Both the position numbers and the translations under genes were made by a program. The notes below the pieces were generated by a model. That model saw only the letters and a program-made list of their open reading frames with translations, searched no databases and had not been told where the DNA came from. A stretch of 64,000 nt of DNA, from contig CAWAWS010000005.1 in NCBI GenBank assembly GCA_963785725.1, positions 64,001 to 128,000 on the forward strand. Reading direction: 5' to 3'. Positions 34,822-64,000 of this stretch are shown piece by piece; position 1 is the stretch's first letter, and every line of letters begins with the position of its first letter. Origin of the DNA: an uncultured delta proteobacterium. GTDB taxonomy: Bacteria; Myxococcota_A; Polyangia; Palsa-1104.

Positions 34822-35319
34822 TCAATTCCCCGCGCCCGCGTCGCCGGCGGCCGACGGACAGAGCTGCGTGTATTTCGGGCTGCACGACGGCAACGCGAAG
34901 GACGCCGGCCCGCCGACGCAGGAGAACGAGCGCTGAAAGCTCAGCTCGTAGACGGCGACGAGCTGCCCCGTAGCCGAGTCGTAGATGTAGTTGGTGCTGA
35001 CGTCGGCGTTGGTCTGTACGACGTTGACGTAGCTGCCGCAGGTCTGTTCCGACAACCCCGCTGCGCCGGCACACCAGCCCGGCCAGCTCGACGGCTGCTC
35101 GGCCTGCTTCAGCGTCGCGACACACTGCCCCCAAGACGCTTCGGGATGGGCACACCAGCTCGCCAACGACTGAGGGCAGCCGGCGAGATCGGCCGAGACG
35201 GCGAGATCGGCGACGCCGGAGAGGTCGGTCTTCGTCCCGACGTCGCTCAGATCGGGTGTCGTCGAGGTCGCACCGCACGCGCCAATCAGAAAGAGCATCG
35301 GGACCAACATGCTGCGCAT
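34822..35319 (-). CDS. Small Cys-rich lipoprotein
   Basis: LIGAC lipobox; several paired Cys. Confidence 0.6.
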   Translation of the reverse strand: MRSMLVPMLFLIGACGATSTTPDLSDVGTKTDLSGVADLAVSADLAGCPQSLASWCAHPEASWGQCVATLKQAEQPSSWPGWCAGAAGLSEQTCGSYVNVVQTNADVSTNYIYDSATGQLVAVYELSFQRSFSCVGGPASFALPSCSPKYTQLCPSAAGDAGAGN

Positions 35320-35395
35320 TTGACGAACTGTGCCGGCTTTTCGGCGTCGTCGCAATGACGCGGCTCACCGCGATCTCGGGGGCGAGCGACGAATG

Positions 35396-36721
35396 TCAGG
35401 GGTCCCAGGAAAGACCGAGCTCGACAAAGCCGCTCGAGCGCGACTTGAGCAACACGAAGTCGGGATAGGCGTAATAGAGATAATTGACTGCGATATCGAG
35501 GAGGATGCGCGTATCGCCGGGATAACGTGCCTGCCGGAGCACACGCGCCGCGCCGAAGTTGACGATATGTCCGAGCTCGCGACTCAGCTCTTTGTCGGAC
35601 GTGTAGTACGTATATCGATCGGGCGATAATAGATATTTCGAATGATAAAAGTCGGCGCCCGACTGTGCATAAAAACGATAGCCCAGTCGCACGCGCCATC
35701 CCGACGTGACCGCGCGCATCTCGGCGGCGGCCGCCAGGCTTTCGACACCCCAGTTGTCGATGCCGAGCCGGGCTTCGCCATGCAACGCCAATCCCTGCGT
35801 CAGCGAATGCACCCACTCGGCCACGGCCGCGTGGCGCACGCGCAGATTGGGCACCGTCTCGGGCAGCCCGTCCGCCGAGCCGATCGTGTTGGCGAACACG
35901 ATGCGCTGGTTCTCGCCGGTGCTCGTCGTCCAGTCGCCGAAGCGAACGTTGCGATAAGGCGAGCCTTGATAGCCGATCGCTGCCGCACCGTCGTAGCGCA
36001 GGCGCAGCGCGTCGTTGGGCGTGAGCACTTGGGCCAGTCCGGCGGTCCATCCGACTTCGCTCATCCGGCGCGCGAAGGTGCTGTCGAGGACGCTGCTAAT
36101 CCAATTGGCGGTGAACGTGAATCCGGCGAGCAACGTCATCGAGCGCTCCACTGCGTCGATCGATCCGTTGAGACCGCCGCTGACGCTGTTGTAGTCGCGC
36201 TCGTTGGCATACGCGGCCGACAGGTTGAAGGTGTGACCGCGACTGTCGTTCCAGCCCGAGCCCAGCGTTGCCGACAATCGGCGATCGGACATCTTGCCGC
36301 CCGACGTCGAGGTCGTCCCCGACGCGCTCGTCACCACGTCGACCTGGCTCAGCCCGGGCGAAGAGCGCACGTCGACCGAGGCGCTCGATACGACATCGAC
36401 GTCGGCGCTGCCGCTGATGGTCCAGCGTCCCACGCCGCCCGTCATCGCGGCCAGCGCGCGGAAGACGATGGTCTCGTCGCTGTCCGCGTAGAGCCCGAGC
36501 CGGCCGGCACCCGTCACCGGCGTCTTGGCCGGCGCCTCGCGACTGACCGCAGTGTCATCGACCTTGGCCGGCACGGGGCTCGACGGCGACGCCGGCTCGC
36601 GCGCGTCAGCGGCCGTCGCCGCCGCCGGGGCGCTCGGCGGACCGGCGGGCACACCTGATTCCTGCGCGCTCACCGAGGACGCCGCGACACACAAGGCGGC
36701 CACGAAGAGAGCGCGGGTCAA
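35396..36721 (-). CDS. DUF3570-family putative outer-membrane beta-barrel (copy 1)
   Basis: DVVSSAS/DVVTSAS, ERDY.S, GYQGSPYR, YRFYAQ..ADFY, TSDKELS; TTG start overlaps the DUF4266 stop. Confidence 0.8.
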   Translation of the reverse strand: MTRALFVAALCVAASSVSAQESGVPAGPPSAPAAATAADAREPASPSSPVPAKVDDTAVSREAPAKTPVTGAGRLGLYADSDETIVFRALAAMTGGVGRWTISGSADVDVVSSASVDVRSSPGLSQVDVVTSASGTTSTSGGKMSDRRLSATLGSGWNDSRGHTFNLSAAYANERDYNSVSGGLNGSIDAVERSMTLLAGFTFTANWISSVLDSTFARRMSEVGWTAGLAQVLTPNDALRLRYDGAAAIGYQGSPYRNVRFGDWTTSTGENQRIVFANTIGSADGLPETVPNLRVRHAAVAEWVHSLTQGLALHGEARLGIDNWGVESLAAAAEMRAVTSGWRVRLGYRFYAQSGADFYHSKYLLSPDRYTYYTSDKELSRELGHIVNFGAARVLRQARYPGDTRILLDIAVNYLYYAYPDFVLLKSRSSGFVELGLSWDP

Positions 36722-37128
36722 TGACAACCACAGCCGGCACCGGCGCTGCCCGGACCGGCGCTGGAGAAGGTCCCTCCCTCCGTGATGTCGAGGACGGAGT
36801 CGCGCTGGGCTTCGGAAAGCGGCGCCATTTGGAACTGCATCGCCGGGCTGGCCAGTCGTTCGCGTTGCCAGGGATGGACCCGCGCGCAGCCGGAGAGCGA
36901 AAGCCAACAGACGGCTGCCAATCCCCACACACGGCGCTGATGACGAGTCAGTGGGTTCCGCGTACGCCAAGGAAACGAGCTATTCAATCGAGGACCTCGA
37001 TCGTTAGTGCCGCGAAGCTTGCCTTTGAGACAAACGACGTTGCTTTTTGCAGCTAGAGACAAAGATGAGTGCCCAGGCGCACATTCAGCGACCGATGCCG
37101 ACGACCGCTTTGACGATTCCGGGATCAC
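36718..37128 (-). CDS. DUF4266-family small lipoprotein (copy 1); start uncertain
   Basis: LSGC-ARVHPWQRERLA..AM...GAGCGCH; the conserved part begins near 36935. Confidence 0.75.
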   Translation of the reverse strand: MIPESSKRSSASVAECAPGHSSLSLAAKSNVVCLKGKLRGTNDRGPRLNSSFPWRTRNPLTRHQRRVWGLAAVCWLSLSGCARVHPWQRERLASPAMQFQMAPLSEAQRDSVLDITEGGTFSSAGPGSAGAGCGCH

Positions 37129-50138: not shown

Positions 50139-50154
50139 TGGCATCGAGCTTGCT
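50139..50154 (+). promoter_or_regulatory. sigma54 promoter
   Basis: TGGCATC-GAGC-TTGCT. Confidence 0.75.
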
Positions 50155-50219: not shown

Positions 50220-51008
50220 CTGATTCCCTGGCTCAACTTGGACGTGCCTGTGCTCGCGGGATCGGCGGCGCCGTTCTGGATCCTCGTCGCGGTTGGCATC
50301 GCGTTGGGCACGAGGGCCAGCCTGCAGCGCGGCGACCAGCTCGGCCTGACCCACCCGCTCCGCTCGTTGCTGACCGCCGTCCTCGTCGGAGGATTCGTCT
50401 CGGCCCGGCTGCTCTATCTCGTCGCCGAACGACCGAGCGCGCAGCCCATGCGCTGGCTCGACCTCGTCGCGCCCGCGGGCCGACTGTCGTCATTCGGCGG
50501 ATTCGCAGGCGCCGTCGTGATGCTGCGTCGGTGGACACATCGGCGCCATCTGCCCGTCGCACCTTACGCCGACGCGCTCGCCGCGGGCTTCCCGCTCGGC
50601 TGGCTCTTCGGCCGCCTCGGCTGCTTCATCGCGCACGATCATCCCGGTCGACTGACCCACTTCTTCTTGGGCGTGCGCTATCCCGACGGCGTCCGTCATG
50701 ACCTCGGCCTCGACGAAGCGCTCTATGCCGCGACTATTGCCGTCATCTTTCGGCTACTCCAGCGTCGCGCCCGTCCGGTCGGCACCTATACGACCATTCT
50801 CATCGTCACTTATGCGCCCGTGCGGTTCGCGCTCGATTTCCTGCGCACGAGCGACGAGCGCTATCTCGGGCTGACGGTCGCGCAAGCCGGCTGCTTCCTG
50901 CTCTGGGCGGCGGCGATGTACCTGGTGACCGCGACGCTGTTGGCGATGACCGAAACCACAGCGCGGTCGCGATTGCAACCTGAAGATCGGAGTCGTGAAC
51001 AGTCTTGA
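50220..51008 (+). CDS. lgt: Prolipoprotein diacylglyceryl transferase (Lgt) paralog
   Basis: ARLLY, LSSFGG, GRLGCF..HDHPG, RH...E, RF..DFLR; start uncertain (CTG 50220 or TTG 50238). Confidence 0.8.
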   Translation: MIPWLNLDVPVLAGSAAPFWILVAVGIALGTRASLQRGDQLGLTHPLRSLLTAVLVGGFVSARLLYLVAERPSAQPMRWLDLVAPAGRLSSFGGFAGAVVMLRRWTHRRHLPVAPYADALAAGFPLGWLFGRLGCFIAHDHPGRLTHFFLGVRYPDGVRHDLGLDEALYAATIAVIFRLLQRRARPVGTYTTILIVTYAPVRFALDFLRTSDERYLGLTVAQAGCFLLWAAAMYLVTATLLAMTETTARSRLQPEDRSREQS

Positions 51009-51341: not shown

Positions 51342-51611
51342 ATGTCGCACCCACGAGACCGCCCCGCGCCGAGCGCGTCCCGACGGCACTTCTGTCGCTG
51401 AGCGGCGCTGGCGTTCGAGGCCGGCGGTCTGTACGCCATCTCCGCCATCTGCACACATCAAGGCTGCACCGTAGACTTCGCGAGCGCGGCCAGCGGATTC
51501 CATCGTCCGTGCCACGGCTCCGTGTTCTCGTTCGATGGCCTCGTCGAAGGCGGACCGGCAACGGCCTCGCTGGTGCACTACGGCGTATCGCCCGACGATC
51601 GCCTCGCGTGA
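51342..51611 (+). pseudogene. Rieske [2Fe-2S] protein remnant
   Basis: GAGGAGG RBS, Tat-like SRRHF, in-frame TGA at 51399, then CTHQGC and RPCHGS (first Cys ligand changed to Arg). Confidence 0.7.
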
Positions 51612-52471
51612 CGGCGACGACGCGCGGCGAGCACGAGGAGCGGCAGCAGCAGCAGTATCGTCAGTGACCCGCGCGCCGGCGCGCCGCCCAACGCGCACGC
51701 CGCGCTGGCACCGGTCGGCACGCTCGCTCCCGCCTCTTGCAAGAAGAAGCTCGCCTGCGCGGTGTCGTCGCCGTACGGATTCTGATCATTCGCCGCGGTC
51801 CCAGCGCCGCCGTTGCCGTCGACGGCAGCGACGTAGACCGTGACCGGCCCGGTGCCGGCGGGCGGCGCCGTCCACCACAGGTGCCACGTGGTCGGCCCGT
51901 TGCGCACCACGAGCCGCGCGGTGTTGGCATCGAGCTGGCGATTGCCGAAGATGGCGTCGCCGTCCGGCGCGACCAAGGCCTCGTCGTTCGTCTGATCGGG
52001 CGCGGGGCAGACACCGGCGACCGGCGCCGCGGCGCAGAAGCCCTTCGTCAGCGGCGCGCCCGCGGCGTCCACCTCCAAGCCGAAGTTGTTGTTGTTGCAC
52101 TGCACGTAGCCGCTCGACGTGCCGGGCGGATCGGTGCAGGTGGGGCTGTTGTATTGCGTGCCCTTGGTCTCGTTCTTCAGCTGCACCTCGAGCTCGTACG
52201 TCTGCCCCGGCACGTAACCGCTCTGAAAGAGCGCCGGCTGATCGGCGGCCAGCTCGAGCCCGAGCGCGCGCGGCCCGTCGGTGTGGCAGCTGTTGCACGT
52301 CAGCGACGCGAAGCGCGGCGCGCCGGTGAAGTAGATGCCCTCGCCGCTCGCGCCGTAAGTCGCGCCGTGCGGCACCATCGGGTTGGCGAAGAACTGCGTG
52401 GCATCGTCGAAGGCGTGTGCTGCCGTCGGTAAGCCGAGGACGAAGAAGATCGCGATCCACTTAGAGCGCAA
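51578..52471 (-). CDS. Secreted CXXCH protein with Reeler-like domain and MYXO-CTERM-like tail
   Basis: Signal peptide, TCNSCH, YVPGQTY.L.V, WTAP..GTGPV..Y...V.GNG; C-terminal AC...LLLLPLLVLAARRRR. Confidence 0.7.
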   Translation of the reverse strand: MRSKWIAIFFVLGLPTAAHAFDDATQFFANPMVPHGATYGASGEGIYFTGAPRFASLTCNSCHTDGPRALGLELAADQPALFQSGYVPGQTYELEVQLKNETKGTQYNSPTCTDPPGTSSGYVQCNNNNFGLEVDAAGAPLTKGFCAAAPVAGVCPAPDQTNDEALVAPDGDAIFGNRQLDANTARLVVRNGPTTWHLWWTAPPAGTGPVTVYVAAVDGNGGAGTAANDQNPYGDDTAQASFFLQEAGASVPTGASAACALGGAPARGSLTILLLLPLLVLAARRRRHARRSSGDTP

Positions 52472-53782
52472 AGCCCACCTCCAGCGCGCCACCGAGCCAG
52501 TCATCGCCGGCCGAATGCGCAAAGCGCGTGCCGGCGCCGGCGAACGAGAGGCCGACGTGATCGTAGCCGCCGCTCAGCCGCAGCCACAGCCACGAGGTCA
52601 GCCACGACGTCGCCGACGCCGACGCCGACACGCCCCACGCCGACGCGGCGCCATATTGTGTCGTCGACGCGATGGCGCCGTCGTAAAGCACGCCGAGATA
52701 GCCGCCTCGCAGCGCCAGCACGGCATAGCGGCCGACGAGCGCGCGCTCCATCCGAGGCCGGCGGCGATGGCGTCGTAGCGGACATCGGGGACGCCGACGT
52801 CGACGGGCGCGGCGTGGCTCCAGCTCATGCGCTGCCAGCCGGTGTCGACGGTCAGCGTGCCGCCGGCGGATTCGTGACCGAGCGGGATGCGGCCGACGAG
52901 CAGCACGTTCCAGCGCGAGGCGCTGCCGGTCGACTTGCCAACCGCCGACGTCGACGTGAAGCCGAAGATGGACTCGTACAATCCCGAGAGGCCGAACGAC
53001 GCCAACACCGGATGGTCCTCGGCGAGCTCCGACGACAGCGCCAGCGGGAATACGGCGCCTTCGACGCGGATGCCGGCCACCGTGCCGCCGGCGTAGCGCG
53101 GCGCCGAGGCGACGTCGAAGCCGAGCCGGCGCGTCAAGAGCGACGGGCCGACGCCGCCGAACACGCCGGCCACCGCGCGCTTGGCCGCCGCCTGCTTGGC
53201 GATGCTGGTGTCACCGGCGACCGCGGGCGACACGTCTTCGACCGACGATGGCGCCGGCGACGACGACGCGCTCACGTCGGGCGGCGACTCGGCCGCGACC
53301 TCCGCCGGCGGCCGCGCGCGACCCATCGGCACGACGCGCTCGAGCGCGCGCACGAGGTCGGCCGCCACGCGCTCGCGAATGAGCGGCAGCGTGCGCCCGC
53401 CGAGCTCGTAACGTCCGCGCGCGATGACGCGGCCGCTCGAGCCTTCGCGCACGGCGACCAAGAGCAGCCGCTGGCGCCCCTGACCGACGACGGTGCCGCC
53501 GATGATGGCGTCGATGTGCAGCCTGAGCGCGACGGCGCGCACGTCTTCCGGCGAGGCGCCGCGCCGGCCCAACTGCTCGGCGACGCGGCGATAGTCGGCG
53601 CCCGGCACCAGCTCATACAGCTCGGTCAGCTCGGCTTCGAGCGCGCTCGAGAAGCGGCCGCCGTCGGGACCGCTGACGCCGAGCAGCGTCACCGTCTTGG
53701 CGGCGGCATCGACGCGCGCGCTCGCGGCCAGCGTCGCCGCCACGGCCAGCGCCGGCAGTAGTCGGCGGCTAATAAATGACAT
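52461..53782 (-). CDS. Putative outer-membrane protein (N-terminal alpha/beta domain + barrel), frameshifted near 52750
   Basis: Signal peptide; amphipathic strands; C-terminal GGALEVGFAL lies in the adjacent frame and one missing G joins them. Confidence 0.6.
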
Positions 53783-54854
53783 TGATGCCCGCTTCGATGT
53801 TGGCGCCGTCACGCGACGTCAAGAGCGCGAAGTCGAGGTACTTGAAATGGAAGTAGTCGACCTTGGCCTCGAGCTCGAGCGCGCGATGCACCCACGGCAG
53901 CCGCCACGACACCTTGGCGCCGACCAAGTTGGACCAAAAGGTCGACAGCTCGCGATCGGCGGTGACGAAGTTGCCGAAGCTCTCGGTCGTGTAGTGCGTC
54001 TGAAAGAAGCTGGCGCCCTTTTGAAAATAGAAGCGCTCGCGCAGCCGCAGGGTCACGTCGCCGAACGTGACGAAGTAGCGCAGCTGCATCGTCTGCGCCT
54101 GCACGCCCCAGTTGTCGGAGTAGAAGCGATAGTCCGCCTGCAACGCGGTATCGGTGAACAGGTGGCGATTGAGCGCGAGCACGACGGCGTGGCGATAGCG
54201 ATCGTTGGGATCGCTCTCCGGCACCTTGAACGCGATGCTGCTCGCGCCATTCGCCTCCGGATCTTCGATGCGCACGAAGCGATACGGGCTCGCTTGATAG
54301 CCGTCGTTGTACGCGAACGAATAGGACAGCTGCGCGATGGTGCGCCGGTCGATCACTTGGCTCCACGACGCCGAGACGCCGTTGACGAGGAGCGAGCGGT
54401 GAAAGAGCTGATCGCCGGTGCGTCCGACGCTGTTGGCGGACACCGAGTAGCCGACCGACAGCGTCGAGTTGCGCTCGAACAGGTCCTGCGCCAGCCCGAA
54501 GTCGACGTTGTGCGAGCGATAGTCGTTCTCGACCGAGTAGACGTAGCTCCCGGTGAGCGTCGTCGCGTGGAACTTCTGCGTCAGGCCGGCGGAGATCTCG
54601 CTGCGAAAGTCGGTCATGCGCTTGGTGGCGTTGCTGATGACGTCGACCGACGCCGAGCTGACGATGTCGGCGACGTAGCTGGCGGAGACGGTGCCGCCTT
54701 GCCAGGCGTCGCGCGAGATGGCCGTCAGCGGCGACACGACCGTCGTGCGATCGCTGTCGGTGTACACCTGCGTCTTGACCGTGAAGCTATCGTCGGCGTG
54801 AGCGGCGGCCGGCAGCGCCAGCGCCAAGGCGAGGACGGCGAATCTCAATTGCAT
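53769..54854 (-). CDS. DUF3570-family putative outer-membrane beta-barrel (copy 2)
   Basis: ADIVSSAS, ENDYRS, GYQASPYR, DYRFYSDNWGV, TADRELS. Confidence 0.85.
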   Translation of the reverse strand: MQLRFAVLALALALPAAAHADDSFTVKTQVYTDSDRTTVVSPLTAISRDAWQGGTVSASYVADIVSSASVDVISNATKRMTDFRSEISAGLTQKFHATTLTGSYVYSVENDYRSHNVDFGLAQDLFERNSTLSVGYSVSANSVGRTGDQLFHRSLLVNGVSASWSQVIDRRTIAQLSYSFAYNDGYQASPYRFVRIEDPEANGASSIAFKVPESDPNDRYRHAVVLALNRHLFTDTALQADYRFYSDNWGVQAQTMQLRYFVTFGDVTLRLRERFYFQKGASFFQTHYTTESFGNFVTADRELSTFWSNLVGAKVSWRLPWVHRALELEAKVDYFHFKYLDFALLTSRDGANIEAGINVIY

Positions 54855-55057
54855 CCGCAGCCGCCTCCAGCCGAGCCATAGCCGCCGACGGCACCTTCGC
54901 GCGCCTCGAGCATGTGCAGATCGAGGACGTCTTCGTGCGGGTCGGGCTGGAACGTCATCGTCGGCTTGGCCAAGAGCTCGCGCTCGTAAGGCTTGACGCG
55001 AACACAACCGGCGGCGCCCGAGAGCGCCAGAGCGAGAATTACGAAGCGCATCGTCAT
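54845..55057 (-). CDS. DUF4266-family small lipoprotein (copy 2)
   Basis: AAGC-VRVKPYERELLAKP.M...H...AREGA.GG.G.AGGGCGCN. Confidence 0.9.
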   Translation of the reverse strand: MTMRFVILALALSGAAGCVRVKPYERELLAKPTMTFQPDPHEDVLDLHMLEAREGAVGGYGSAGGGCGCN

Positions 55058-55620
55058 CGCGGCGTCAGCCCCATCATCGTGAAGACCGTCTGGCAGCTCG
55101 CGTCGACGGGGCTCGACTGCTTGGCGCCGCCGATCCACGCCACGAGCGCTTGCCAATCGGCGTCGTCGGTCAGCGTCGTCGCCGGATAGACCGGGAAGAT
55201 GCCGACGCCGTGATGCTCGGCGCCGCCGAAGCTGGCCTTGAGCGGCTTACCGAGCAGCGGAATGTGCTGCAGGTCGGGCTGCATGCGCTCGGCGGCGGTC
55301 GCGGCATAAAGCAGCCCGGAGACCGACTCGAAGTTGAGCTCGACCTCGGAGTCGGTCAGGCGCGCGTCGCGTCCATCGCGCGTGCCGTCGTCGGTCTGGC
55401 GCAGCTTGCCGGGCGAGTACAGCCGCAGCGCGTGGTCGGCGTTGCCGTGGCACGCGAGGTACGAGCAGCGCCGAATCAGCACCGGCTCGACCGTGCAGAC
55501 GAACTGGTTGTAGTCGAGGAAGGCGTCGGGCGAGCCGGTGGTCTGCAATCCTTGCGTGTGGTCGAGGCCGGGGCAGCCGGCGACCGTAGCCACGACGATG
55601 ACGGCGAACAGGCGATTCAC
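55054..55620 (-). CDS. Lipoprotein with CX4CH putative heme-binding motif
   Basis: VAGC lipobox; F...VEPVL.RRCSYLACHG; LL.KPL...H. Confidence 0.7.
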   Translation of the reverse strand: MNRLFAVIVVATVAGCPGLDHTQGLQTTGSPDAFLDYNQFVCTVEPVLIRRCSYLACHGNADHALRLYSPGKLRQTDDGTRDGRDARLTDSEVELNFESVSGLLYAATAAERMQPDLQHIPLLGKPLKASFGGAEHHGVGIFPVYPATTLTDDADWQALVAWIGGAKQSSPVDASCQTVFTMMGLTPR

Positions 55621-55673
55621 GCGGAGTGACGCGCAGCGCGGTAAATGGCGGCGGAAAGCACGGCGCGCCTGTC

Positions 55674-55689
55674 AGCAAACGGAGTGCCA
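55674..55689 (-). promoter_or_regulatory. sigma54 promoter
   Basis: TGGCACT-CCGT-TTGCT. Confidence 0.8.
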
Positions 55690-55719
55690 GCGACTGAGGC
55701 GCGCGACAGCAGTTTGCAG

Positions 55720-55737
55720 TGCGCAACGATCGTACAG
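55720..55737 (+). promoter_or_regulatory. Recurrent enhancer-like motif
   Basis: TGCGCAACGATCGTACAG between two divergent sigma54 promoters. Confidence 0.7.
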
Positions 55738-55910
55738 CGCGCCGCCGTCGCGGGACCTATCAGTCTGATCCGGCTCGGTCGCGGTCGTACGCGACCCTCC
55801 CTCTTGGCTCGCTTGCGAGTGGGACTGCAAACCGGTTCGCACGCAGGCGGGAGCGCAGTCGCCGGGTCATTTCGCGTCGCCGCGGCTCGCGTCCGGCGCC
55901 GAGTTGCGCG

Positions 55911-55926
55911 TGGCACCGCGCTTGCT
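55911..55926 (+). promoter_or_regulatory. sigma54 promoter
   Basis: TGGCACC-GCGC-TTGCT. Confidence 0.8.
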
Positions 55927-55939
55927 CGGTCGGCGAACC

Positions 55940-56698
55940 ATGCGCGATGACTCGAAATGCGCCACTTGCCTCGATCGGCGCGCCTTTGTCGCGGCCGCCG
56001 GCGTCGGGGCGCTGGCGCTGGCGCTTCCCGGCTGCGAAGCGCCGACGACCGCGGGACGCATTTCCGAAGGCCCCATCGATCCGACCACGGGCGGAACCGG
56101 CGGCAACGGCAACGGCGGCGGAGACACCGCCGGTGGCGGCGGCAGCGCCGGCGGTGAAGCGGGCGGCGGCGGCAGCGCCGGTGGCGGCGGAACCGCGGGC
56201 GGTGGCGGCGAAGCGGGCGGCGGCGGAACTGCGGGCGGCGGCGGAACTGCCGGTGGCGGTGGAACCGCCGGCGGCGGCGGAAGCGCGGGCGGCGGCGGAG
56301 CCGCGGGCGGCGGCGGAACTGCCGGTGGCGGCGGCAGCGCGCCCACTTGCACGCCGGGCACGCTCGCCGCGGGCGCCGCGTCGAGCTACACCGTGGGCAC
56401 GGCCAAGAGCTTCAGCAACGCCATCAGCTCCGGCGGCCAAAAGTACACGATCTTCGTCGCCAAGGACGCCAACGGCTTTTACGCGATGGACTCGGACTGC
56501 ACGCACGCCGGCTGCCCGGTCGCGTCGCAAGGCACCACGTACTACTGCAACTGCCACGGCGCCACCTTCGACGCCAACGGCAAGCACACCGGCGGCCCGG
56601 GCAGCGGTTATTTGCAGCATTACACCGTCTGCGTCGACGCCAGCGGCAACGTCACCGTCGACATCGACAGTCAGGCGACGCCGACGCAGCGCTTCTGA
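55940..56698 (+). CDS. Tat-exported Rieske [2Fe-2S] lipoprotein with long Gly-rich linker
   Basis: DRRAFV Tat motif, LPGC lipobox, CTHAGC and CNCHGA boxes. Confidence 0.88.
   Translation: MRDDSKCATCLDRRAFVAAAGVGALALALPGCEAPTTAGRISEGPIDPTTGGTGGNGNGGGDTAGGGGSAGGEAGGGGSAGGGGTAGGGGEAGGGGTAGGGGTAGGGGTAGGGGSAGGGGAAGGGGTAGGGGSAPTCTPGTLAAGAASSYTVGTAKSFSNAISSGGQKYTIFVAKDANGFYAMDSDCTHAGCPVASQGTTYYCNCHGATFDANGKHTGGPGSGYLQHYTVCVDASGNVTVDIDSQATPTQRF
56130..56340 (+). repeat. Coding 18-bp tandem repeat (GGGG(S/T/E/A)A)n
   Basis: Repeated GGCGGCGGCGGAACCGCG-like units inside the Rieske gene. Confidence 0.8.
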
Positions 56699-56707
56699 CC
56701 GGGCGCC

Positions 56708-56953
56708 CTATTCGACCCGCGTGTGCGTGGCGTCCCAGACGATCTGCAGGCCGGCGAACTTGCGCAGCCGATCGCGCACGCTCACTTTGCCTTCGATGAT
56801 CTCGTCGGCGAGATCGGGCGCGAGGAACGACGGCGGATCCTGCCGCAGCGCCAGCTCGTCGGCGCGCGTGAGATAGAGCGCGATCGGCGCTTGGCGGTGG
56901 GTTCCGATATACGCGTCCTTGAGCGCCCGCACGCGCCTCTCGAATTCCGTCAT
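56708..56953 (-). CDS. Small hypothetical protein
   Basis: MTEFERRVRALK...; sigma54-like GGGAATG-GCGC-TTGCT at 56984-56999 upstream. Confidence 0.55.
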   Translation of the reverse strand: MTEFERRVRALKDAYIGTHRQAPIALYLTRADELALRQDPPSFLAPDLADEIIEGKVSVRDRLRKFAGLQIVWDATHTRVE

Positions 56954-57040
56954 CTCGCGTCCGCGTCCAAGCGCCAAGAGCGGAGCAAGCGCCATTCCCA
57001 GCCCGAGAGCGCGGCAGACCGGGCAGCCGCAGCGGCCAGC

Positions 57041-57078
57041 TGCGCAACGTTCGAACAGAGCGCGCAACGATCGTACAA
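57041..57078 (+). promoter_or_regulatory. Tandem recurrent enhancer-like motif
   Basis: TGCGCAACGTTCGAACAG-AG-CGCGCAACGATCGTACAA. Confidence 0.7.
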
Positions 57079-57355
57079 TTCGACGACGACCCGCATGTCT
57101 GACCCGCGGCGGCTTTGGCGACGGTCCGCGCAACTCCAGTAGCGTCTCTTTCGGCGGCCTCGCGAGCGTCTGCACGCGGCACGAAGCGGGAGGCCGCTTG
57201 GACGAGGCAACGTTGGAGTGCGCCGGTCAACAGCCCGCCGACGAGATCGAGCGCTCGCCGGCGACAGTTGACGCGAATCGACGACCGCGCGACCGATCAA
57301 ATAGCGACGATTAACGGTGCCGCGTTCACCACTGCCAATCACACTGTCAGAGCCC

Positions 57356-57562
57356 ATGATGAAGCTCGCACTCCTTGTCACTTTCGTCTCCACCACCGTC
57401 GGTTGCGCCACCGTCAAACCTTGGCAGCGCGAGAGCCTGGCGCAGCCGGGCATGAGCCTCGACGCCACGCCCAGCGCCGCCGCCGAGCAGCACATGCTCG
57501 AGTCGCGCGAGGCGTCCGTCGGCGGCTTCGGCGGCGCCGGCGGCGGTTGCGGCTGTAACTGA
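57356..57562 (+). CDS. DUF4266-family small lipoprotein (copy 3)
   Basis: TVGC-ATVKPWQRESLA.P.M...H...SREAS.GG.GGAGGGCGCN. Confidence 0.9.
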   Translation: MMKLALLVTFVSTTVGCATVKPWQRESLAQPGMSLDATPSAAAEQHMLESREASVGGFGGAGGGCGCN

Positions 57563-57563
57563 G

Positions 57564-57745
57564 AACCCCAGGCTTCGCCTCGATTGAGCAGGCGAGGGCG
57601 AGGCGTGTGAGTCGGATCGTGGATGCGACCACAGCGACCGACCGAGGAATACTGTCCGTATTTCGACCGAGGGAGCGCGGACGTAGTCCGCGAGGCGGCC
57701 GCACGCATCGTCCGTAGCGGATCGATCGAGGCGAACCCTGGGGTT
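57564..57745. mobile_element. MITE-like/structured intergenic element with 24-bp terminal inverted repeats
   Basis: Left end AACCCCAGGCTTCGCCTCGATTGA vs reverse complement of right end AACCCCAGGGTTCGCCTCGATCGA (22/24); internal hairpins; flanked by AG on both sides. Confidence 0.65.
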
Positions 57746-58976
57746 AGAAGCGCCCGGTGGCCGACAGCGCCAGCACGAGCGCGCTGGCGAAGCCGCGGGT
57801 GCGCGCGGCGTTGGGCGGCTCGGGCGAGAGCGCGAAGATCTTGACGTAGTCGGCGCCGAGGCTCCATTCGACCTCGGTGAACATGCGCCAACGCCGCTTG
57901 TCCGGCGAAAAGCGGCTGTCGTGGACGAAGCGCGCGCCGAGGAGCAGGTCGGCGATCGGCGCCAGCTCCTGGTCGGCCGTGAAATAGCGGCCCACCGGCC
58001 CGGCGCGCTCGTAGGAGTCGGCCCAGCCGACGTCGCGGTAGAAGCTGGCGCTCGACTGCACGTAGCCGCGAGCGCGCGCCACGTAGCGCCACGCGGGCGC
58101 GCTCAGCTTGAGCGGCTGCTCCCAGCTGACCTCGCCGGTGATCGCTTGGACGCCCCAGGTGTCGCGATAGAGCCGCAGGTTGCCGCCGAGCGTCGCCCGG
58201 AGCGACGGCAAGGCGTAGCGGACGCGGGCGGTGACGGCGCCGCGGTCGCGCAGCCGCGGATGCGACTCTTGCGCCTGCATGAAGCCGTCGTCGAGACGCA
58301 CGCGGCGGTAAGGGCTCGACTGAAAGCCGTCCGCGTGCTGCCACGTGCCGCTGAGGCCGCCGAGCAGATGCGCCGTCAGCGACTGCACCACCCCGACTTC
58401 GAGGTCGTCGAGGTCGAGCCGCTCCTCGGTCAGCGCGGCCACGCCGGCGAAGCAGCCACGCGAGCTGTCGAGCGGCTGCCGCAGCGTCAGCGCCACGCCG
58501 GGCTGATTGAGGTCGCAGATGCTGTCGAAGCTGTGGCTGTAATCGACGGTGAGGATGGTGTTGTGCTGCGCGAGGTCGAGCGTGAGCCCGCCGCGGATGA
58601 GGTGCGAGCGATAGTCGCTCTCGGTGCCGTAGCCGTAGCCGGCGCGAAACGTCGCCGGCCCGGCGGTGGCCGCGGCGCCGCCGCCGATGACGTTGCGCAC
58701 CTCCGAGAAGCGGGTCGCGGCGCTGACGACGTCGGGCGAGCCGTACGTGCGCGGCGTGGCGCCGGTGACGATGTCGGCGCTCCAGTTGACGTCGAACAGG
58801 AGCCAAGGCTTCGCGTGGACCTTGCCGGACACGGACGGCGTGATGACCACCAGCGCATCCGACGACGCCGGCTGGACGAAGACGCGCAGATCGGCGTTGG
58901 CCTCGCCCCGCTCTTGCGCGGCCGCGGTCGCGACGACGAGCGTGACGAGCGCAGCGACGACGGCAGCGCGGATCAC
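57744..58976 (-). CDS. DUF3570-family putative outer-membrane beta-barrel (copy 3)
   Basis: ADIVTGAT/DVVSAAT, ESDYRS, GFQSSPYR, RLYRDTWGV, TADQELA. Confidence 0.8.
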   Translation of the reverse strand: MIRAAVVAALVTLVVATAAAQERGEANADLRVFVQPASSDALVVITPSVSGKVHAKPWLLFDVNWSADIVTGATPRTYGSPDVVSAATRFSEVRNVIGGGAAATAGPATFRAGYGYGTESDYRSHLIRGGLTLDLAQHNTILTVDYSHSFDSICDLNQPGVALTLRQPLDSSRGCFAGVAALTEERLDLDDLEVGVVQSLTAHLLGGLSGTWQHADGFQSSPYRRVRLDDGFMQAQESHPRLRDRGAVTARVRYALPSLRATLGGNLRLYRDTWGVQAITGEVSWEQPLKLSAPAWRYVARARGYVQSSASFYRDVGWADSYERAGPVGRYFTADQELAPIADLLLGARFVHDSRFSPDKRRWRMFTEVEWSLGADYVKIFALSPEPPNAARTRGFASALVLALSATGRF

Positions 58977-59398
58977 GGCGTCACCCAATCCTCGATGACG
59001 CTCGCCGCCGTCGCGCGATCGAGGACGACCGGCCCGGGCGGATGCAGGTTCGACTGACCTTCGGGCACCGTCAAGAGGCGACTCGCGAGCGGCTCATCGC
59101 AGCGCACGAGCTGCAGCGCGGACAGATAGTTCTCGCGCCAGCCGAGCGGCCAGGCGGCGAGCGGCGTGCCTGCCGCCGGCGCGGCCTCGGGTGGACGCAG
59201 CCGCAGGTAGCCGTGCCCGTCGTCGAAGGCGTGGCAGCCGCGCGTGCTGCAGCGGTTGGCCTCCAGATAACGCGGCCAGACTTCGCTGACGAAGATATCA
59301 GGGCTGGCCGCGCAGGCGCCCGCGTCCGGCACGGTCCCGGCATCGACCGTGCAGGCTGCGCCAGTCATGAGCGCCAACATCGCCAGACGTCGCCACAT
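58973..59398 (-). CDS. Lipoprotein with CX4CH putative heme-binding motif
   Basis: GAAC lipobox; F...VWP.YL..NRCSTRGCH; SRLL..P...H. Confidence 0.7.
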   Translation of the reverse strand: MWRRLAMLALMTGAACTVDAGTVPDAGACAASPDIFVSEVWPRYLEANRCSTRGCHAFDDGHGYLRLRPPEAAPAAGTPLAAWPLGWRENYLSALQLVRCDEPLASRLLTVPEGQSNLHPPGPVVLDRATAASVIEDWVTP

Positions 59399-59446
59399 CG
59401 TCGCAGCCGATCTATGCAGCCGCGCCGGCGTGTCTACAAAGCAGTC

Positions 59447-59950
59447 ATGAGCGAGCGGCGAGCCAGCGTGAGCGTCCGGCCTATTGAGCCGGCGGATCGA
59501 GCCTTTCGCGTGTCGACCAGCGGACGTGGTCACCCGAGCGATTGCACGCGGCGCCTCTTCAACCTGGCCGTGTGCGGCCTCGGCGCCGAGCTCTTGGCCT
59601 GTGGCAGCGCGACGACCGTGCTGACGCCCACCGCCGACCGGGTGACGCTGACCTACGCGCAGTTCCCGGCGCTCGCCCAGGCCGGCGGCAGCGCCGTCGT
59701 CGACGTCGCCGGCGGTTTCCCGCTGGTCGTCGTGCGCACCGGCGACGCCACCGCGGTGGCGCTGAGCGCCACCTGCACGCACGCCGGCTGCATCCTGCGC
59801 TACGAGCCGAGCGCGTCCGACCTTCACTGCGACTGCCACGGCGCCAACTTCAGCCTGGGCGGCGCCGTCTTGCACGGACCGGCGACCATCCCGCTGCCGC
59901 TGTATGCCGCCACGACCGGCGCCGACGCCATCACCGTCGACCTCGCCTGA
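59447..59950 (+). CDS. Tat-exported Rieske [2Fe-2S] lipoprotein
   Basis: TRRLF Tat motif, LLAC lipobox, CTHAGC and CDCHGA; start uncertain. Confidence 0.85.
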   Translation: MSERRASVSVRPIEPADRAFRVSTSGRGHPSDCTRRLFNLAVCGLGAELLACGSATTVLTPTADRVTLTYAQFPALAQAGGSAVVDVAGGFPLVVVRTGDATAVALSATCTHAGCILRYEPSASDLHCDCHGANFSLGGAVLHGPATIPLPLYAATTGADAITVDLA

Positions 59951-59966
59951 GCCGGCATCGACGCCG

Positions 59967-61199
59967 CTAGGACGCGTCTTGCAGCAGCTTGAGCAGCTCT
60001 TCGGGACTGACGAAGCGGTCGATCTTGTGCACCTGCTTGCCGTCGGCGCTGACCAGCACCAGCGTCGGTAGCGTCTCCGCGTTCCAGTGCGCTTTGGCCG
60101 CCGCCACCGCCGGATCGTCGTCGTTCGTGCAGTTGACCTTCACCAGCGTGAAGTGACCGAGCGCGCGCGCCACTTCGGTGCGGCTGAACGTCTTGAGCTC
60201 CAGCTCTTTGCACGGCAGACACCAGTCGGCATAGAAGTCGAGCAGCACCGGCTTGTGCAGCGCGCGCGCCAGCTTGAGCCCTTCGTCCTCGCCGTGCACC
60301 CAGGTCAGCACCGGCGCGCCCGCTTCCAGCTTGGGCGCCAAGATGCCGCCGATGACGCCGAACAGGCCGACCACCACGACGCCGACCGAGAGCGCCTTGC
60401 GCAGCTTGACCACCGTCGTGTCGTGAAACGACAGATGCACCGCGCCGAGCGCCAGGCCGGCCGCCGCCACCGCGCCGCAGCCGACGAGCCACAGCGTCGA
60501 CGGGCGGCCGATGGCGCGCAAGGGCGCGATCACGTTGCGCAGGAAGTACAGCGCGCCCACGAGCATGACGATGCCGAAGACGCTCTTGACCGCCTCCATC
60601 CACGCGCCCGACTTGGGCAGCGCGACGGCGAAAGCGGCGATGGCGAAGAAGAGCACGCCCATGCCGAGCGCGTAGGTGACGAGCAGCGAGCCGCCGAGCA
60701 GCACCGACTTCGTCGTCGCCACGAACGCCAAGATCGAGGCCAACACCGGGCCGGTGCAAGGCGCGGCGATGATGCCGCCGACGAGGCCCATCGCGAAGGC
60801 GCCGAAGAAGCCCTTGCCGCCGACCGAGGTCAGCTTCTGCTGCAGCTCCGACGGCAGGCTGAGCTCGAAGGCGCCGAACATCGACACCGCCATGATGACG
60901 AAGAGGGTCGCGATCGGCACCATGACCCACGGGTTGGCCATGAACGTGCCGAACGCCTTGCCGGCCAGCGCCGAGCCGACGCCGAGCGCCGCGTACATGA
61001 CGCCGATGCCGCCCACGTACAGCGACGCCAGCGCCATGGCGCGGCGGCGCGGCACGTCGTCGCCGCGCGCGCCGAAGAGCGACACCGTGATCGGGATGAG
61101 CGGATACACGCACGGCGTCAGCGACGTCAGAAAGCCGCCGACGAAGACGCTCGCGTAGGCCCACAGCCAGCCGTGCGCGAACAGCGCGCCGCCGTTCAC
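59967..61199 (-). CDS. DsbD/CcdA-family disulfide reductase with C-terminal thioredoxin domain
   Basis: SLTPCVYPLIP and AAPCTGP TM cysteines; DFYADWCLPCK; no N-terminal alpha domain. Confidence 0.9.
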   Translation of the reverse strand: MNGGALFAHGWLWAYASVFVGGFLTSLTPCVYPLIPITVSLFGARGDDVPRRRAMALASLYVGGIGVMYAALGVGSALAGKAFGTFMANPWVMVPIATLFVIMAVSMFGAFELSLPSELQQKLTSVGGKGFFGAFAMGLVGGIIAAPCTGPVLASILAFVATTKSVLLGGSLLVTYALGMGVLFFAIAAFAVALPKSGAWMEAVKSVFGIVMLVGALYFLRNVIAPLRAIGRPSTLWLVGCGAVAAAGLALGAVHLSFHDTTVVKLRKALSVGVVVVGLFGVIGGILAPKLEAGAPVLTWVHGEDEGLKLARALHKPVLLDFYADWCLPCKELELKTFSRTEVARALGHFTLVKVNCTNDDDPAVAAAKAHWNAETLPTLVLVSADGKQVHKIDRFVSPEELLKLLQDAS

Positions 61200-61690
61200 T
61201 GGTTCACCAGCGCCAACAGCTGCGCCTCGAGCTTGGACTCGTCGCCGGGCTCGAAGCCGCCGTTGATGGCGCGCACGACGCCGCGCTTGTCGATGACATA
61301 GGACGACGGCATCTTCGGCGGCTCCCAGCGACCGACGATCTTCTTGCCGCCGTCGTTGATGACGGTCAGGCGGATGCCCTTGGCGCGCAGGAAATCCTCG
61401 GCGTTCTTGCGATCGTCGTCGATGTTGACGGCGACGATCTCGACGCCCTTTTGCTTCAGGCGCGGCGCCAGCTGCGACAACAGCGGCAGCTCCTTCTTGC
61501 ACGGCTCGCACCACGAGGCCCAGAAGTCGAGCAGCACCACCTTGCCGCGCAGCGACGACAGCTTGAGCGGCTGCTGGGTCAGCGTCGCCGACTCGAAGTC
61601 GGGCGCGGCCTGGCCCGGCTTGACCTCCGCGAACGCCGACAGTGGGCCAAAGAGCGCGACTACGAGGGCGAGCCTGGAAACGAGCTGCAT
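61196..61690 (-). CDS. TlpA/ResA-family thioredoxin
   Basis: Signal peptide, APDF, GKVVLLDFWASWCEPC, MPSSYVID. Confidence 0.92.
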   Translation of the reverse strand: MQLVSRLALVVALFGPLSAFAEVKPGQAAPDFESATLTQQPLKLSSLRGKVVLLDFWASWCEPCKKELPLLSQLAPRLKQKGVEIVAVNIDDDRKNAEDFLRAKGIRLTVINDGGKKIVGRWEPPKMPSSYVIDKRGVVRAINGGFEPGDESKLEAQLLALVNQ

Positions 61691-61713
61691 GAATCCTCCT
61701 GCGCTGCGGCATT

Positions 61714-61729
61714 AGCAAGCCGGGCGCCA
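61714..61729 (-). promoter_or_regulatory. sigma54 promoter of the TlpA-DsbD genes
   Basis: TGGCGCC-CGGC-TTGCT. Confidence 0.75.
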
Positions 61730-61902
61730 CGTGAGCTGGGCGTCGTCGCCGCCGTTTTACGACCGCGCGCGACCGCCGATCTCGCTGGCAACGCTGCCGA
61801 TCGCGCGGCTTGCAAACTCGGACGCGCAGCGCTGGGTGCGCAGTCACCGGGGCGCCCTGCCGCGCTCGCGCGACGACGAGGCGGGCGGCAGCCGTCGCCA
61901 CG

Positions 61903-61939
61903 CTGTTCGCGCGCTGCGCAACTGTTCGAATCCTGCGCA
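61903..61939 (-). promoter_or_regulatory. Tandem recurrent enhancer-like motif (reverse orientation)
   Basis: Minus strand TGCGCAGGATTCGAACAG-T-TGCGCAGCGCGCGAACAG. Confidence 0.7.
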
Positions 61940-61949
61940 GCGACGAGAG

Positions 61950-62558
61950 CTACGGCGTGAGCGTCGTCAGCTGAAACGAGGTCGGCAGAGCAGCCAGCAC
62001 CGCGGGAACGAGCGCGCTGTTGTAGCCGTTGCCGAGGCGGATGCAGTCGTCGTCGCCGTCGACGACCGCCTGATCGAAGTCGACGCCGGCGAACCAAGCA
62101 GCGACGTCGATGGTGACGGCGAAATGGATGGTCTGACCGGCGGTGAGCTCGCGGCCGGACGACGCGCGCAGATCGGCCACCACGTCGTCGTCGTCGTCGC
62201 GATCGACGAGGTCGACGACCAGCGAACGGCCGCGCCACTCGCCGCTGACCTGGAGCGACTGGACGGAGAAGCGCAAGCGGCTGTAGACGCCTTGCGGCAG
62301 GCCATCCATCGTCAGCGGCGTCGCCGGCGTGAGCGCGTTCACGGCGACATCGGGCAGCATGTAGCCGGGCGCCGCCTGCACGTCGCCGAAGAGCGACAGA
62401 TCCTCGAGCACGAGCGCGGCGCTGTCGACGGTGAGCGGCCCCGACGGCAGCGGCTGCGTGGCGAACGCGACCGCGACCGACCCCGTGGACTGAGCCGGCG
62501 CCGACGCGCCACCGCCGCAGCCGGCGACCAGCAGCAGCAAAGTCCAGCACGACTTCAT
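61950..62558 (-). CDS. Lipoprotein (beta-sandwich-like)
   Basis: MKSCWTLLLLVAGC lipobox. Confidence 0.65.
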   Translation of the reverse strand: MKSCWTLLLLVAGCGGGASAPAQSTGSVAVAFATQPLPSGPLTVDSAALVLEDLSLFGDVQAAPGYMLPDVAVNALTPATPLTMDGLPQGVYSRLRFSVQSLQVSGEWRGRSLVVDLVDRDDDDDVVADLRASSGRELTAGQTIHFAVTIDVAAWFAGVDFDQAVVDGDDDCIRLGNGYNSALVPAVLAALPTSFQLTTLTP

Positions 62559-62571
62559 GGGGCACCCATGC

Positions 62572-62587
62572 AGCAACGGCAATGCCA
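62572..62587 (-). promoter_or_regulatory. sigma54 promoter
   Basis: TGGCATT-GCCG-TTGCT. Confidence 0.75.
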
Positions 62588-62626: not shown

Positions 62627-62672
62627 TGCGCACGGATCGTACAGTTGTACAGCCGCTCGCCGATCGTAGAAT
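62627..62672 (+). promoter_or_regulatory. Recurrent motif abutting a sigma70-like promoter of the bEBP gene
   Basis: TGCGCACGGATCGTACAG (62627-62644), then TTGTAC-16bp-TAGAAT (62645-62672). Confidence 0.6.
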
Positions 62673-62680
62673 GCGGCGGA

Positions 62681-64000
<1,320 letters not shown>

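Follow-up and report, generated by a model that had tools for sequence, protein, structure and literature searches.

A DUF3570-DUF4266 Outer-membrane Locus with Predicted Heme and Rieske Partners in a Soil Myxobacterium: a Candidate Flavin-linked Redox System across the Cell Envelope

How electrons might cross the outer membrane where no multiheme cytochrome and no flavin transferase are encoded nearby is the question raised by a locus in positions 64001-128000 of contig C5, a stretch of 64,000 nucleotides referred to here as the window. The genome analyzed (8.9 Mb, 88% complete) belongs to an uncultured bacterium regarded as a soil myxobacterium, related DNA being present in soil metagenomes and the nearest named relatives being Polyangia/Myxococcales metagenome-assembled genomes. 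A preliminary description of this DNA proposed a trans-envelope redox system composed of two DUF3570 outer-membrane barrels, DUF4266 lipoproteins, CX4CH lipoproteins, Rieske lipoproteins, a surface-sorted CXXCH protein (G1), and a DsbD-TlpA thiol relay, working without flavin. Translation of the window proteins and scans against Pfam and NCBIfam families, the Pfam scan covering 22 open reading frames (ORFs), together with comparison of related genomes, support the trans-envelope system with heme and Fe-S partners, which is conserved across genomes. In the reading developed below, on which our confidence is evenly divided, a flavin-bearing DUF3570 barrel links the periplasmic thiol relay to the heme and Rieske carriers, with electrons likely leaving the cell.

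The Barrel and Its Flavin Sites

In the gene clusters defined by Méheust et al. 2021 (PMC8238504), which join DsbD, thioredoxin, DUF4266, DUF3570, and ApbE, DUF3570 is itself flavinylated by ApbE at two [S/T]GA[S/T] motifs; the preliminary description had assumed a separate flavin mononucleotide (FMN)-binding protein as ApbE substrate. The AlphaFold2 model of the first window barrel, DUF3570a (predicted local distance difference test score, pLDDT, 95), comprises 16 antiparallel strands; the protein has a signal peptide and a C-terminal aromatic residue. Its even strand number and its short turns alternating with long loops are those of outer-membrane barrels, and all of the Foldseek matches listed are to such barrels, the best being BcsC (TM score 0.58). 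Both acceptor motifs fall at the end of strand 3 and in loop 2 of the model, which, given the standard topology with short turns periplasmic and long loops outward, would place them on the outer side of the membrane.

The aligned sites read DIVTGAT, which is canonical, and DVVSAAT in DUF3570b, and DIVSSAS and DVISNAT in DUF3570a. The ApbE consensus is D-x-x-[S/T]-G-A-[S/T], and replacement of the Gly by Ala halves flavinylation of a model substrate without abolishing it (review PMC12052999). When the Gly position is left free, as in D-x-x-[ST]-x-A-[ST], 103 of 105 barrels have the motif within their first 170 residues, compared with 4.6 for shuffled sequences and 2 for the C-terminal remainder, and 63 of the 105 have it twice. 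Site 1 is canonical [ST]GA[ST] in all 38 readable clade B barrels, none of which has ApbE in the stretch examined.

A control set was formed by operons with apbE directly upstream, retrieved with a Hymenobacter query, in which both genes were readable in 14 of 16 loci; the Hymenobacter apbE is itself split, and two of the loci (L133 and L134) are identical. Site 1 of these barrels is xSAS in 14 of 14, and in 7 (5 full-length, 2 partial) the available sequence holds no [ST]GA[ST]. Because barrels adjacent to ApbE have the same Gly-less motif, its presence is not a sign of flavin loss.

ApbE itself is in no clade A1 or clade B locus and was found in 2 of 105 loci and then in none of 46 further loci. 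The genome has a single ApbE gene, intact and with a signal peptide, on contig C25. Across the class, ApbE is present in 67 of 68 DUF3570-positive genomes versus 40 of 52 negative ones (Fisher p 1.7e-4, which is overstated as kin are not independent). No FMN_bind domain was found in the genome at its 88% completeness. Taken together, the sequences make it likely that the DUF3570 barrels of the locus carry covalent FMN attached in trans by ApbE. Two-electron thiols are usually coupled to one-electron metal centers by way of a flavin, so that heme and Rieske partners make a flavin more needed, not less. Since the motif Gly and linkage in cis to apbE both appear dispensable, ApbE substrates have perhaps been under-counted.

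The DUF4266 lipoprotein encoded with the barrel ends in a Gly-rich run followed by GCGC, invariant in 35 of 35 sequences, and has a near-invariant His. Judged by its length, the Gly-rich tail could cross the membrane through the barrel lumen.

Heme and Iron-Sulfur Partners

The C-x4-C-H motif of CX4CH-A and a distal His are invariant in 90 of 90 sequences, and CX4CH is a described heme motif (PMC11492766). The protein is modeled as a small helical domain (pLDDT 93), for which a structure search of 48,161 chains ranked PccH (Z 4.2, root mean square deviation 3.5, 86 aligned residues) and FoxE (Z 3.5) as the top two. It resembles these proteins and the PF07635 domain in being helical, with the heme motif at the end of the N-terminal helix and a distal His, and differs from them in its invariant CX4CH spacing, its lipoprotein anchor, the lack of any Pfam, NCBIfam, or PDB sequence match, and the weak Z scores. 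For CX4CH neither Foldseek, with a second look, nor a profile search of PDB sequences gave a match, which does not imply a new fold; the nearest named Atlas cluster to CX4CH-A (0.93) has PSCyt1 in 16% of its members. CX4CH-A is a probable bis-His monoheme cytochrome c, and a Ccm-type heme attachment locus is present in the genome on contig C4. CX4CH domains also occur in β-propeller proteins of ∼1000 residues with hydrazine-synthase-alpha-like middle domains (G000 C16:260818-263877), which adjoin DUF3570 in three loci (L029, L043, and L060).

G1 resembles the NF041895 (MXAN_6652-like) proteins in having a Reeler β-sandwich after an N-terminal CXXCH, with a match to the spondin-1 Reeler domain at E 6.5e-5. 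The CXXCH is invariant in 26 of 26 homologues, all 26 begin the predicted mature chain with an aromatic residue, and they share no second His or Met. In cytochrome f, the sixth heme ligand is the N-terminal amine. The analogy suggests the same ligation in G1, or else an open site; a sequence match to cytochrome f was sought and not found, and G1 further differs from that protein in its MYXO-CTERM-like tail and, in some genomes, its fusion to DUF4266. A Cys motif, a transmembrane segment, and an Arg cluster are visible in the tail. The window protein has no match to the TIGR03901 or TIGR03382 hidden Markov models, a homologue (in locus L021) passes TIGR03382, and the Atlas neighbor of G1 is named MXAN_6652-family MYXO-CTERM. 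As proteins of the MYXO-CTERM type are surface-exposed (bioRxiv 2023.06.07.544157), G1 is predicted to be a surface monoheme protein.

The two Rieske proteins combine [2Fe-2S] ligand boxes with a twin-arginine (Tat) signal, the twin-arginine motif being present in 12 of 12 rows of Rieske A homologues. Linkers of type A are long, that of Rieske A having 104 residues, 54% of them Gly. The second box is followed by G-A-x-F instead of G-S-x-Y, a change that mutagenesis associates with low potential, and five homologues are without the disulfide cysteines. No cytochrome b was found among the 22 window ORFs, with all NCBIfam models of bc subunits far below cut-off, and each window partner has one heme motif, so that the barrel is not accompanied by a multiheme cytochrome. 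Other stand-alone Rieske proteins, one with two Rieske domains, are encoded away from DUF3570 (C2:138389-139258, C47:155177-155656, and C2:292595-292957).

Conservation of the Gene Linkage

Matches to DUF3570a occur in 69 of 121 genomes of the class. In a context set of 105 barrel rows, with the genome's own seven loci labeled by hand, the genes within 5.5 kb of the barrel include DUF4266 (100), CX4CH-A (38), G1 (22), a thioredoxin-fold gene (16), Rieske (14), DUF2271-like (14), CX4CH-B (8), and ApbE (1). A quick tree of the barrels, omitting those with <70% profile coverage and two duplicates (L079 and L081), places DUF3570a in a 16-row clade, A1 (support 99), with CX4CH-A, G1, and OM2 as partners and a Rieske gene in 12 of 16.

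Rieske and CX4CH-A genes stand beside DUF3570a in all 15 informative loci of its family, a count that includes two loci of the genome itself and excludes three duplicate loci, one that lacks upstream DNA, and one belonging to another subfamily; the association pointed out by the preliminary description is thus found in other genomes as well. TlpA and/or DsbD adjoin in nine of the 15, in six of them between Rieske and CX4CH-A in one operon, leaving aside a match in L018, which reads as a peroxiredoxin, and a similarly placed match in L172. The CX4CH-A profile was built in part from the same loci as were counted. No part of the CX4CH alignment had the conservation that a pattern scan requires; a scan with a single CX4CH protein gave five loci. 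The linkage exceeds chance, its partners being found again in other genomes.

Six loci encode G1 and DUF4266 as one in-frame fusion, joined through the G1 tail and the lipoprotein signal, and this fusion also constitutes a 64-member Atlas cluster; in one locus, G1 is fused to CX4CH-A. These fusions tie G1, DUF4266, and CX4CH-A together. The products (L021, L022, L024, L025, L026, and L038) read as polyproteins of Reeler-CXXCH, MYXO-CTERM segment, second hydrophobic segment with lipobox, and DUF4266, the last replaced by CX4CH-A in L037, and are likely cut by both sortase and signal peptidase II.

The barrels of other clades have lipoproteins with diheme motifs or DUF2271/fn3/CFI-box-CTERM exported proteins as partners, as would be expected if the core were fixed and the surface modules could be exchanged. 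The clade with DUF2271-like/fn3/CFI-box-CTERM partners includes G000 C7:330638-332239, L046, L053, L055, L065, L068, L069, and L073, and several of these partner proteins show D-x-x-S-C-A-[ST], which may be the ApbE motif in a form with Cys. In several clades (L035, L036, L039, L044, L054, L061, L064, L066, L087, and L179-L181), G1 is replaced or accompanied by an unannotated lipoprotein of ∼170-200 residues that has two CXXCH motifs. A DUF2271 lipoprotein of ∼260 residues lies near the CX4CH loci L026, L038, L044, L045, L064, L084, L087, L099, and L155; in L026 and L044 it contains a canonical flavinylation motif.

Control of the Locus

Four strict σ54 sites (GG-N10-GC) are found in the window against 0.10 expected, out of 13 genome-wide, and they precede lgt, the CX4CH-A operon, Rieske A, and the G14-TlpA-DsbD operon. 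Divergent from G14 is a gene for an FHA-domain σ54 activator, followed beyond the window by a Ser/Thr kinase gene. Of the 15 family loci, 11 have a relaxed σ54 site 5′ of the Rieske gene and nine adjoin the activator-kinase cassette; homologues of G14 adjoin the activator in L017, L019, L080, L173, L177, L180, and L181. Module B (the genes around DUF3570b) has no clear σ54 site. Module A (those around DUF3570a), Rieske A, TlpA-DsbD, and the spare Lgt are, from this pattern, likely co-induced through σ54 by the FHA activator and the kinase. The regulated unit therefore exceeds the interval given in the preliminary description, reaching lgt (∼50220-51008) on one side and the activator (62645-64000 and beyond) on the other; the four σ54 sites, the activator, and the second Lgt had been omitted there, as had a frameshift in OM2. 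In some cases no more than 13-14 bases separate the end of the σ54 site from the ATG (window 55911-55940 and 62558-62587; L019:6970-6999), which would make the mRNAs nearly leaderless.

Proposed Electron Path and Competing Explanations

The path envisaged begins with DsbD, which would hand cytoplasmic reductant to TlpA, as is established chemistry for the families seen here. TlpA, to judge from the conserved linkage, would reduce the CxC tail of the DUF4266 lipoprotein, and the Gly-rich tail would reach through the lumen of the modeled 16-strand barrel to FMN on loop 2. There the flavin would split two-electron thiol chemistry into single electrons, which may pass to the bis-His cytochrome CX4CH, the Rieske head on its tether, and the Reeler heme protein anchored at the surface. 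From these carriers the electrons would go to an acceptor outside the cell, for which a chelated metal or an enzyme at the surface is the most plausible candidate.

Several observations weigh against this reading. The canonical Gly is present in only 12 of the 105 barrels of the tree set, the SSAS and SNAT motifs are predicted flavinylation sites only, and the conservation of site 1 could have structural reasons. ApbE is common in the class anyway, as its 40 occurrences among 52 DUF3570-negative genomes attest, and one DUF3570-positive genome (G062) has no ApbE match. The cytochrome fold matches of CX4CH-A are weak (Z 4.2 and 3.5), with no match in Foldseek, and CX4CH-A occurs without DUF3570 in five of five test stretches (L082-L086), two of which stop at the edge of a contig. 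The link to Rieske genes is a narrow one, limited to 12 of 16 loci in clade A1 and four loci in subclade B′, with 0 of 31 in regular clade B. No recurrent metal transporter or terminal enzyme was found among the 45 commonest neighbor clusters (146 loci; 17 proteins scanned). 

A more far-reaching proposal, which we put forward tentatively, is that DUF3570-DUF4266 constitutes a new class of outer-membrane electron conduit without a multiheme wire, in which a threaded dithiol peptide would reduce the loop FMN and interchangeable surface modules would take up single electrons, the modules in these myxobacteria being the CX4CH cytochrome, the Rieske head, and G1 with an independently evolved, cytochrome f-like amine ligand. 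Cytoplasmic NADPH and thioredoxin would in this way be coupled directly to extracellular chemistry.

Of the competing explanations, the one that survives best, unlikely as we consider it, makes DsbD-TlpA and Lgt helpers in maturation that keep heme-binding cysteines reduced and lipidate the lipoproteins, while electrons would come to the barrel from the quinone pool via the tethered Rieske protein and flow could be inward. It is favored by the ccm locus on C4, in which no thioredoxin or DsbD gene is evident, by the shared σ54 site pattern of Lgt, by extra conserved cysteines in CX4CH-A that suggest a structural disulfide, and by the flexible 104-residue linker of Rieske A. The best structural neighbors, PccH and FoxE, are moreover linked to electron uptake or iron oxidation. 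However, thioredoxin-DUF4266-DUF3570 clusters are widespread without cytochromes (PMC8238504, and L122 here), and most barrel clades are entirely without Rieske proteins.

Less probable again is a function of barrel and peptide as an envelope redox sensor, or as an assembly or anchoring device for surface proteins, in which case the cofactors would serve signaling or quality control and not bulk electron export. The seven DUF3570/DUF4266 pairs in the genome, the surface-sorted partner peculiar to every clade, the kinase and FHA/σ54 activator adjoining nine of 15 family loci, and the sorted JDVT-CTERM proteins reported beside DUF4266/DUF3570/TlpA (Haft preprint, bioRxiv 2023.06.07.544157) would all fit such a role. 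The typable partners nevertheless have redox-cofactor motifs (CXXCH, CX4CH, Rieske, and DUF2271) for which a secretion device would have no need.

We regard as improbable a metal channel in which a soft metal such as Cu(I) or Fe(II), once reduced at the outer face, would be bound by the CxC tail within the lumen and passed inward. Reeler domains occur in eukaryotic ferric-chelate reductases, and this, the invariant CGC and near-invariant His of DUF4266, and the conserved charged residues of the barrel agree with metal handling, as does the VIT1 iron transporter in 25 published clusters (PMC8238504). Yet the commonest neighbors in 146 loci include no recurrent transporter or metal regulator, and control looks to be of the σ54/FHA type.

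Least probable of all is the flavin-independent model of the preliminary description, in which thiols give electrons directly to Fe-S and heme carriers: ApbE is indeed absent from clade A1 and B loci and DUF3570a lacks the canonical Gly at either site, but acceptor motifs are conserved in 103 of 105 barrels and canonical in 38 of 38 of clade B, ApbE is available in trans from C25, ApbE-adjacent barrels are equally Gly-less, and direct transfer from dithiol to heme would, on established chemistry, lack a two-to-one-electron converter.

Relation to Known Systems

With the DsbD-type flavinylation system (PMC8238504), the locus shares DsbD_TM, a periplasmic thioredoxin, a CXC-tailed DUF4266 protein, and DUF3570 motifs at the homologous place. 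It differs in that ApbE is on another contig and in that two canonical [S/T]GA[S/T] motifs are replaced by SSAS/SNAT in DUF3570a and TGAT/SAAT in DUF3570b; because these two features fail, the locus is set apart as a variant within DsbD-type systems. Additional to that system are the CX4CH lipoproteins, the Tat Rieske lipoproteins, the Reeler-CXXCH protein, the second outer-membrane protein, the σ54/FHA control, and the seven paralogous pairs in one genome.

Like the MtrAB porin-cytochrome, the barrel is proposed to insulate a redox wire between periplasmic and surface carriers, and MtrB (6r2q) is one among many generic barrel matches of DUF3570a. In contrast to MtrAB, DUF3570a has 16 strands and 341 residues, against a chain of 649, and no multiheme protein fills its lumen; its wire is proposed to be a dithiol peptide with covalent flavin and its donor a thioredoxin system. 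The locus is neither an Mtr-type porin-cytochrome nor a bc complex. No description of an arrangement with Rieske, CX4CH, and G1 partners was found in the literature, although the cluster tables of PMC8238504, which lay beyond the search, may list myxobacterial loci; PMC11334425 was not retrieved for DUF3570.

Two Modules of Ancient Divergence

The preliminary description saw a duplicated architecture, and a barrel operon headed by a CX4CH gene and divergent from a Rieske gene does occur twice; it is the origin by duplication that does not stand. DUF3570a and DUF3570b are 28-29% identical and belong to separate supported clades, CX4CH-A and CX4CH-B can be aligned only around the motif, and Rieske A and Rieske B only in the cluster boxes, so that a recent duplication of the module was rejected.

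DUF3570b falls in clade B (support 100), whose regular locus consists of CX4CH-B, an SH3-containing protein, DUF4266, and DUF3570. The window's layout of module B, with a convergent DUF4266 gene and a Rieske gene divergent from CX4CH-B, recurs in three genomes of the genus (L155, L158, and L159), is absent as a combination in L160, and is unreadable in L161-L163; DUF4266b is likewise convergent on DUF3570b in L155 and L158-L162. In other genomes, modules A and B are apart. Sequence comparison thus makes module B an ancient paralogue of module A, inserted beside it here. A third pair, at ∼34822-36900 of the window (− strand), consists of DUF4266 with a CGCH tail and DUF3570 with DVVSSAS and DVVTSAS, followed by a small lipoprotein, and its barrel falls in a separate clade.

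Organization of the Locus

From right to left, the genes are G14, TlpA, DsbD_TM-thioredoxin, Rieske B, CX4CH-B, DUF3570b, DUF4266b, and an 81-residue ORF, continuing with Rieske A, CX4CH-A, DUF4266a, DUF3570a, OM2, and G1 (Table 1). Translation and family scans bear out the preliminary description, at its coordinates, for all the genes it named: the orders CX4CH-A, DUF4266a, DUF3570a and CX4CH-B, DUF3570b; Rieske genes divergent from the CX4CH operons, each with a twin-arginine motif and a lipobox Cys; two DUF4266 peptides with CGCN tails; TlpA and DsbD_TM-thioredoxin; a CXXCH protein with a Cys-transmembrane-RRRR tail; and the absence of ApbE, FMN_bind, and cytochrome b from the 22 ORFs scanned. 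Its further outer-membrane protein, OM2, is also there but is not intact, being frameshifted by one base near 52747-52750. Since a paralogue on contig C17 is intact and related strains have one extra base at this position in four of four sequencing runs, either the assembly is in error here or the strain has a lesion. The 81-residue ORF has no family match and no paralogue and was not seen in the related loci compared. A further Lgt is encoded on contig C16, and L019 also contains one. Window positions 1-22000 have a GC content of 62-67%, below the 65-72% of the second half.

Table 1. Features of the locus, in window coordinates
Feature	Position	Strand	Basis
σ54 -24/-12 site 5′ of lgt	50139..50154	+	strict match
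Second Lgt (lipoprotein diacylglyceryl transferase), start uncertain	50220..51008	+	Pfam LGT 7e-24
G1: signal peptide, CXXCH, Reeler-like (choice-of-anchor V) domain, MYXO-CTERM-like tail	51578..52471	-	NF041895 above cut-off
OM2, unannotated probable outer-membrane protein, frameshifted	52461..53782	-	two overlapping ORFs
DUF3570a, predicted 16-strand outer-membrane barrel, DIVSSAS + DVISNAT	53769..54854	-	Pfam 1e-39
DUF4266a lipoprotein, Gly-rich CGCN tail	54845..55057	-	Pfam 1e-20; lipobox
CX4CH-A lipoprotein, probable bis-His monoheme cytochrome c	55054..55620	-	motif, predicted structure
σ54 site of CX4CH-A operon	55674..55689	-	strict match
σ54 site of Rieske A	55911..55926	+	strict match
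Rieske A, Tat lipoprotein, 104-residue linker	55940..56698	+	Pfam Rieske
81-residue ORF	56708..56953	-	coding-like GC3
DUF4266b, convergent on DUF3570b	57356..57562	+	Pfam 2e-18
DUF3570b, clade B barrel, DIVTGAT (canonical) + DVVSAAT	57744..58976	-	Pfam 2e-26
CX4CH-B lipoprotein	58973..59398	-	recurs 5′ of clade B barrels
Rieske B, Tat lipoprotein, short linker, start perhaps further downstream	59447..59950	+	Pfam Rieske
DsbD transmembrane domain fused to C-terminal thioredoxin domain	59967..61199	-	Pfam DsbD_TM 4e-54, Thioredoxin_7
TlpA/ResA-type periplasmic thioredoxin, CEPC	61196..61690	-	family scans
G14, unannotated lipoprotein, first gene of TlpA-DsbD operon	61950..62558	-	lipobox
σ54 site of G14-TlpA-DsbD	62572..62587	-	strict match
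FHA-domain σ54 activator, extending a few bases beyond window end	62645..64000	+	Pfam FHA + Sigma54_activat + HTH_8

Implications

DUF3570/DUF4266 clusters are widespread and unsolved. To these the locus adds partners that are visible spectroscopically (heme and Rieske), a candidate switch in the σ54/FHA kinase system, and a structural frame provided by the barrel and its outer-loop flavin sites, which together make the whole family testable. If the flavin-bearing barrel does connect the thiol relay to the heme and Rieske carriers, electrons would have a thioredoxin-fed way across the outer membrane without any multiheme cytochrome, one that screens for porin-cytochrome genes would for this reason miss.

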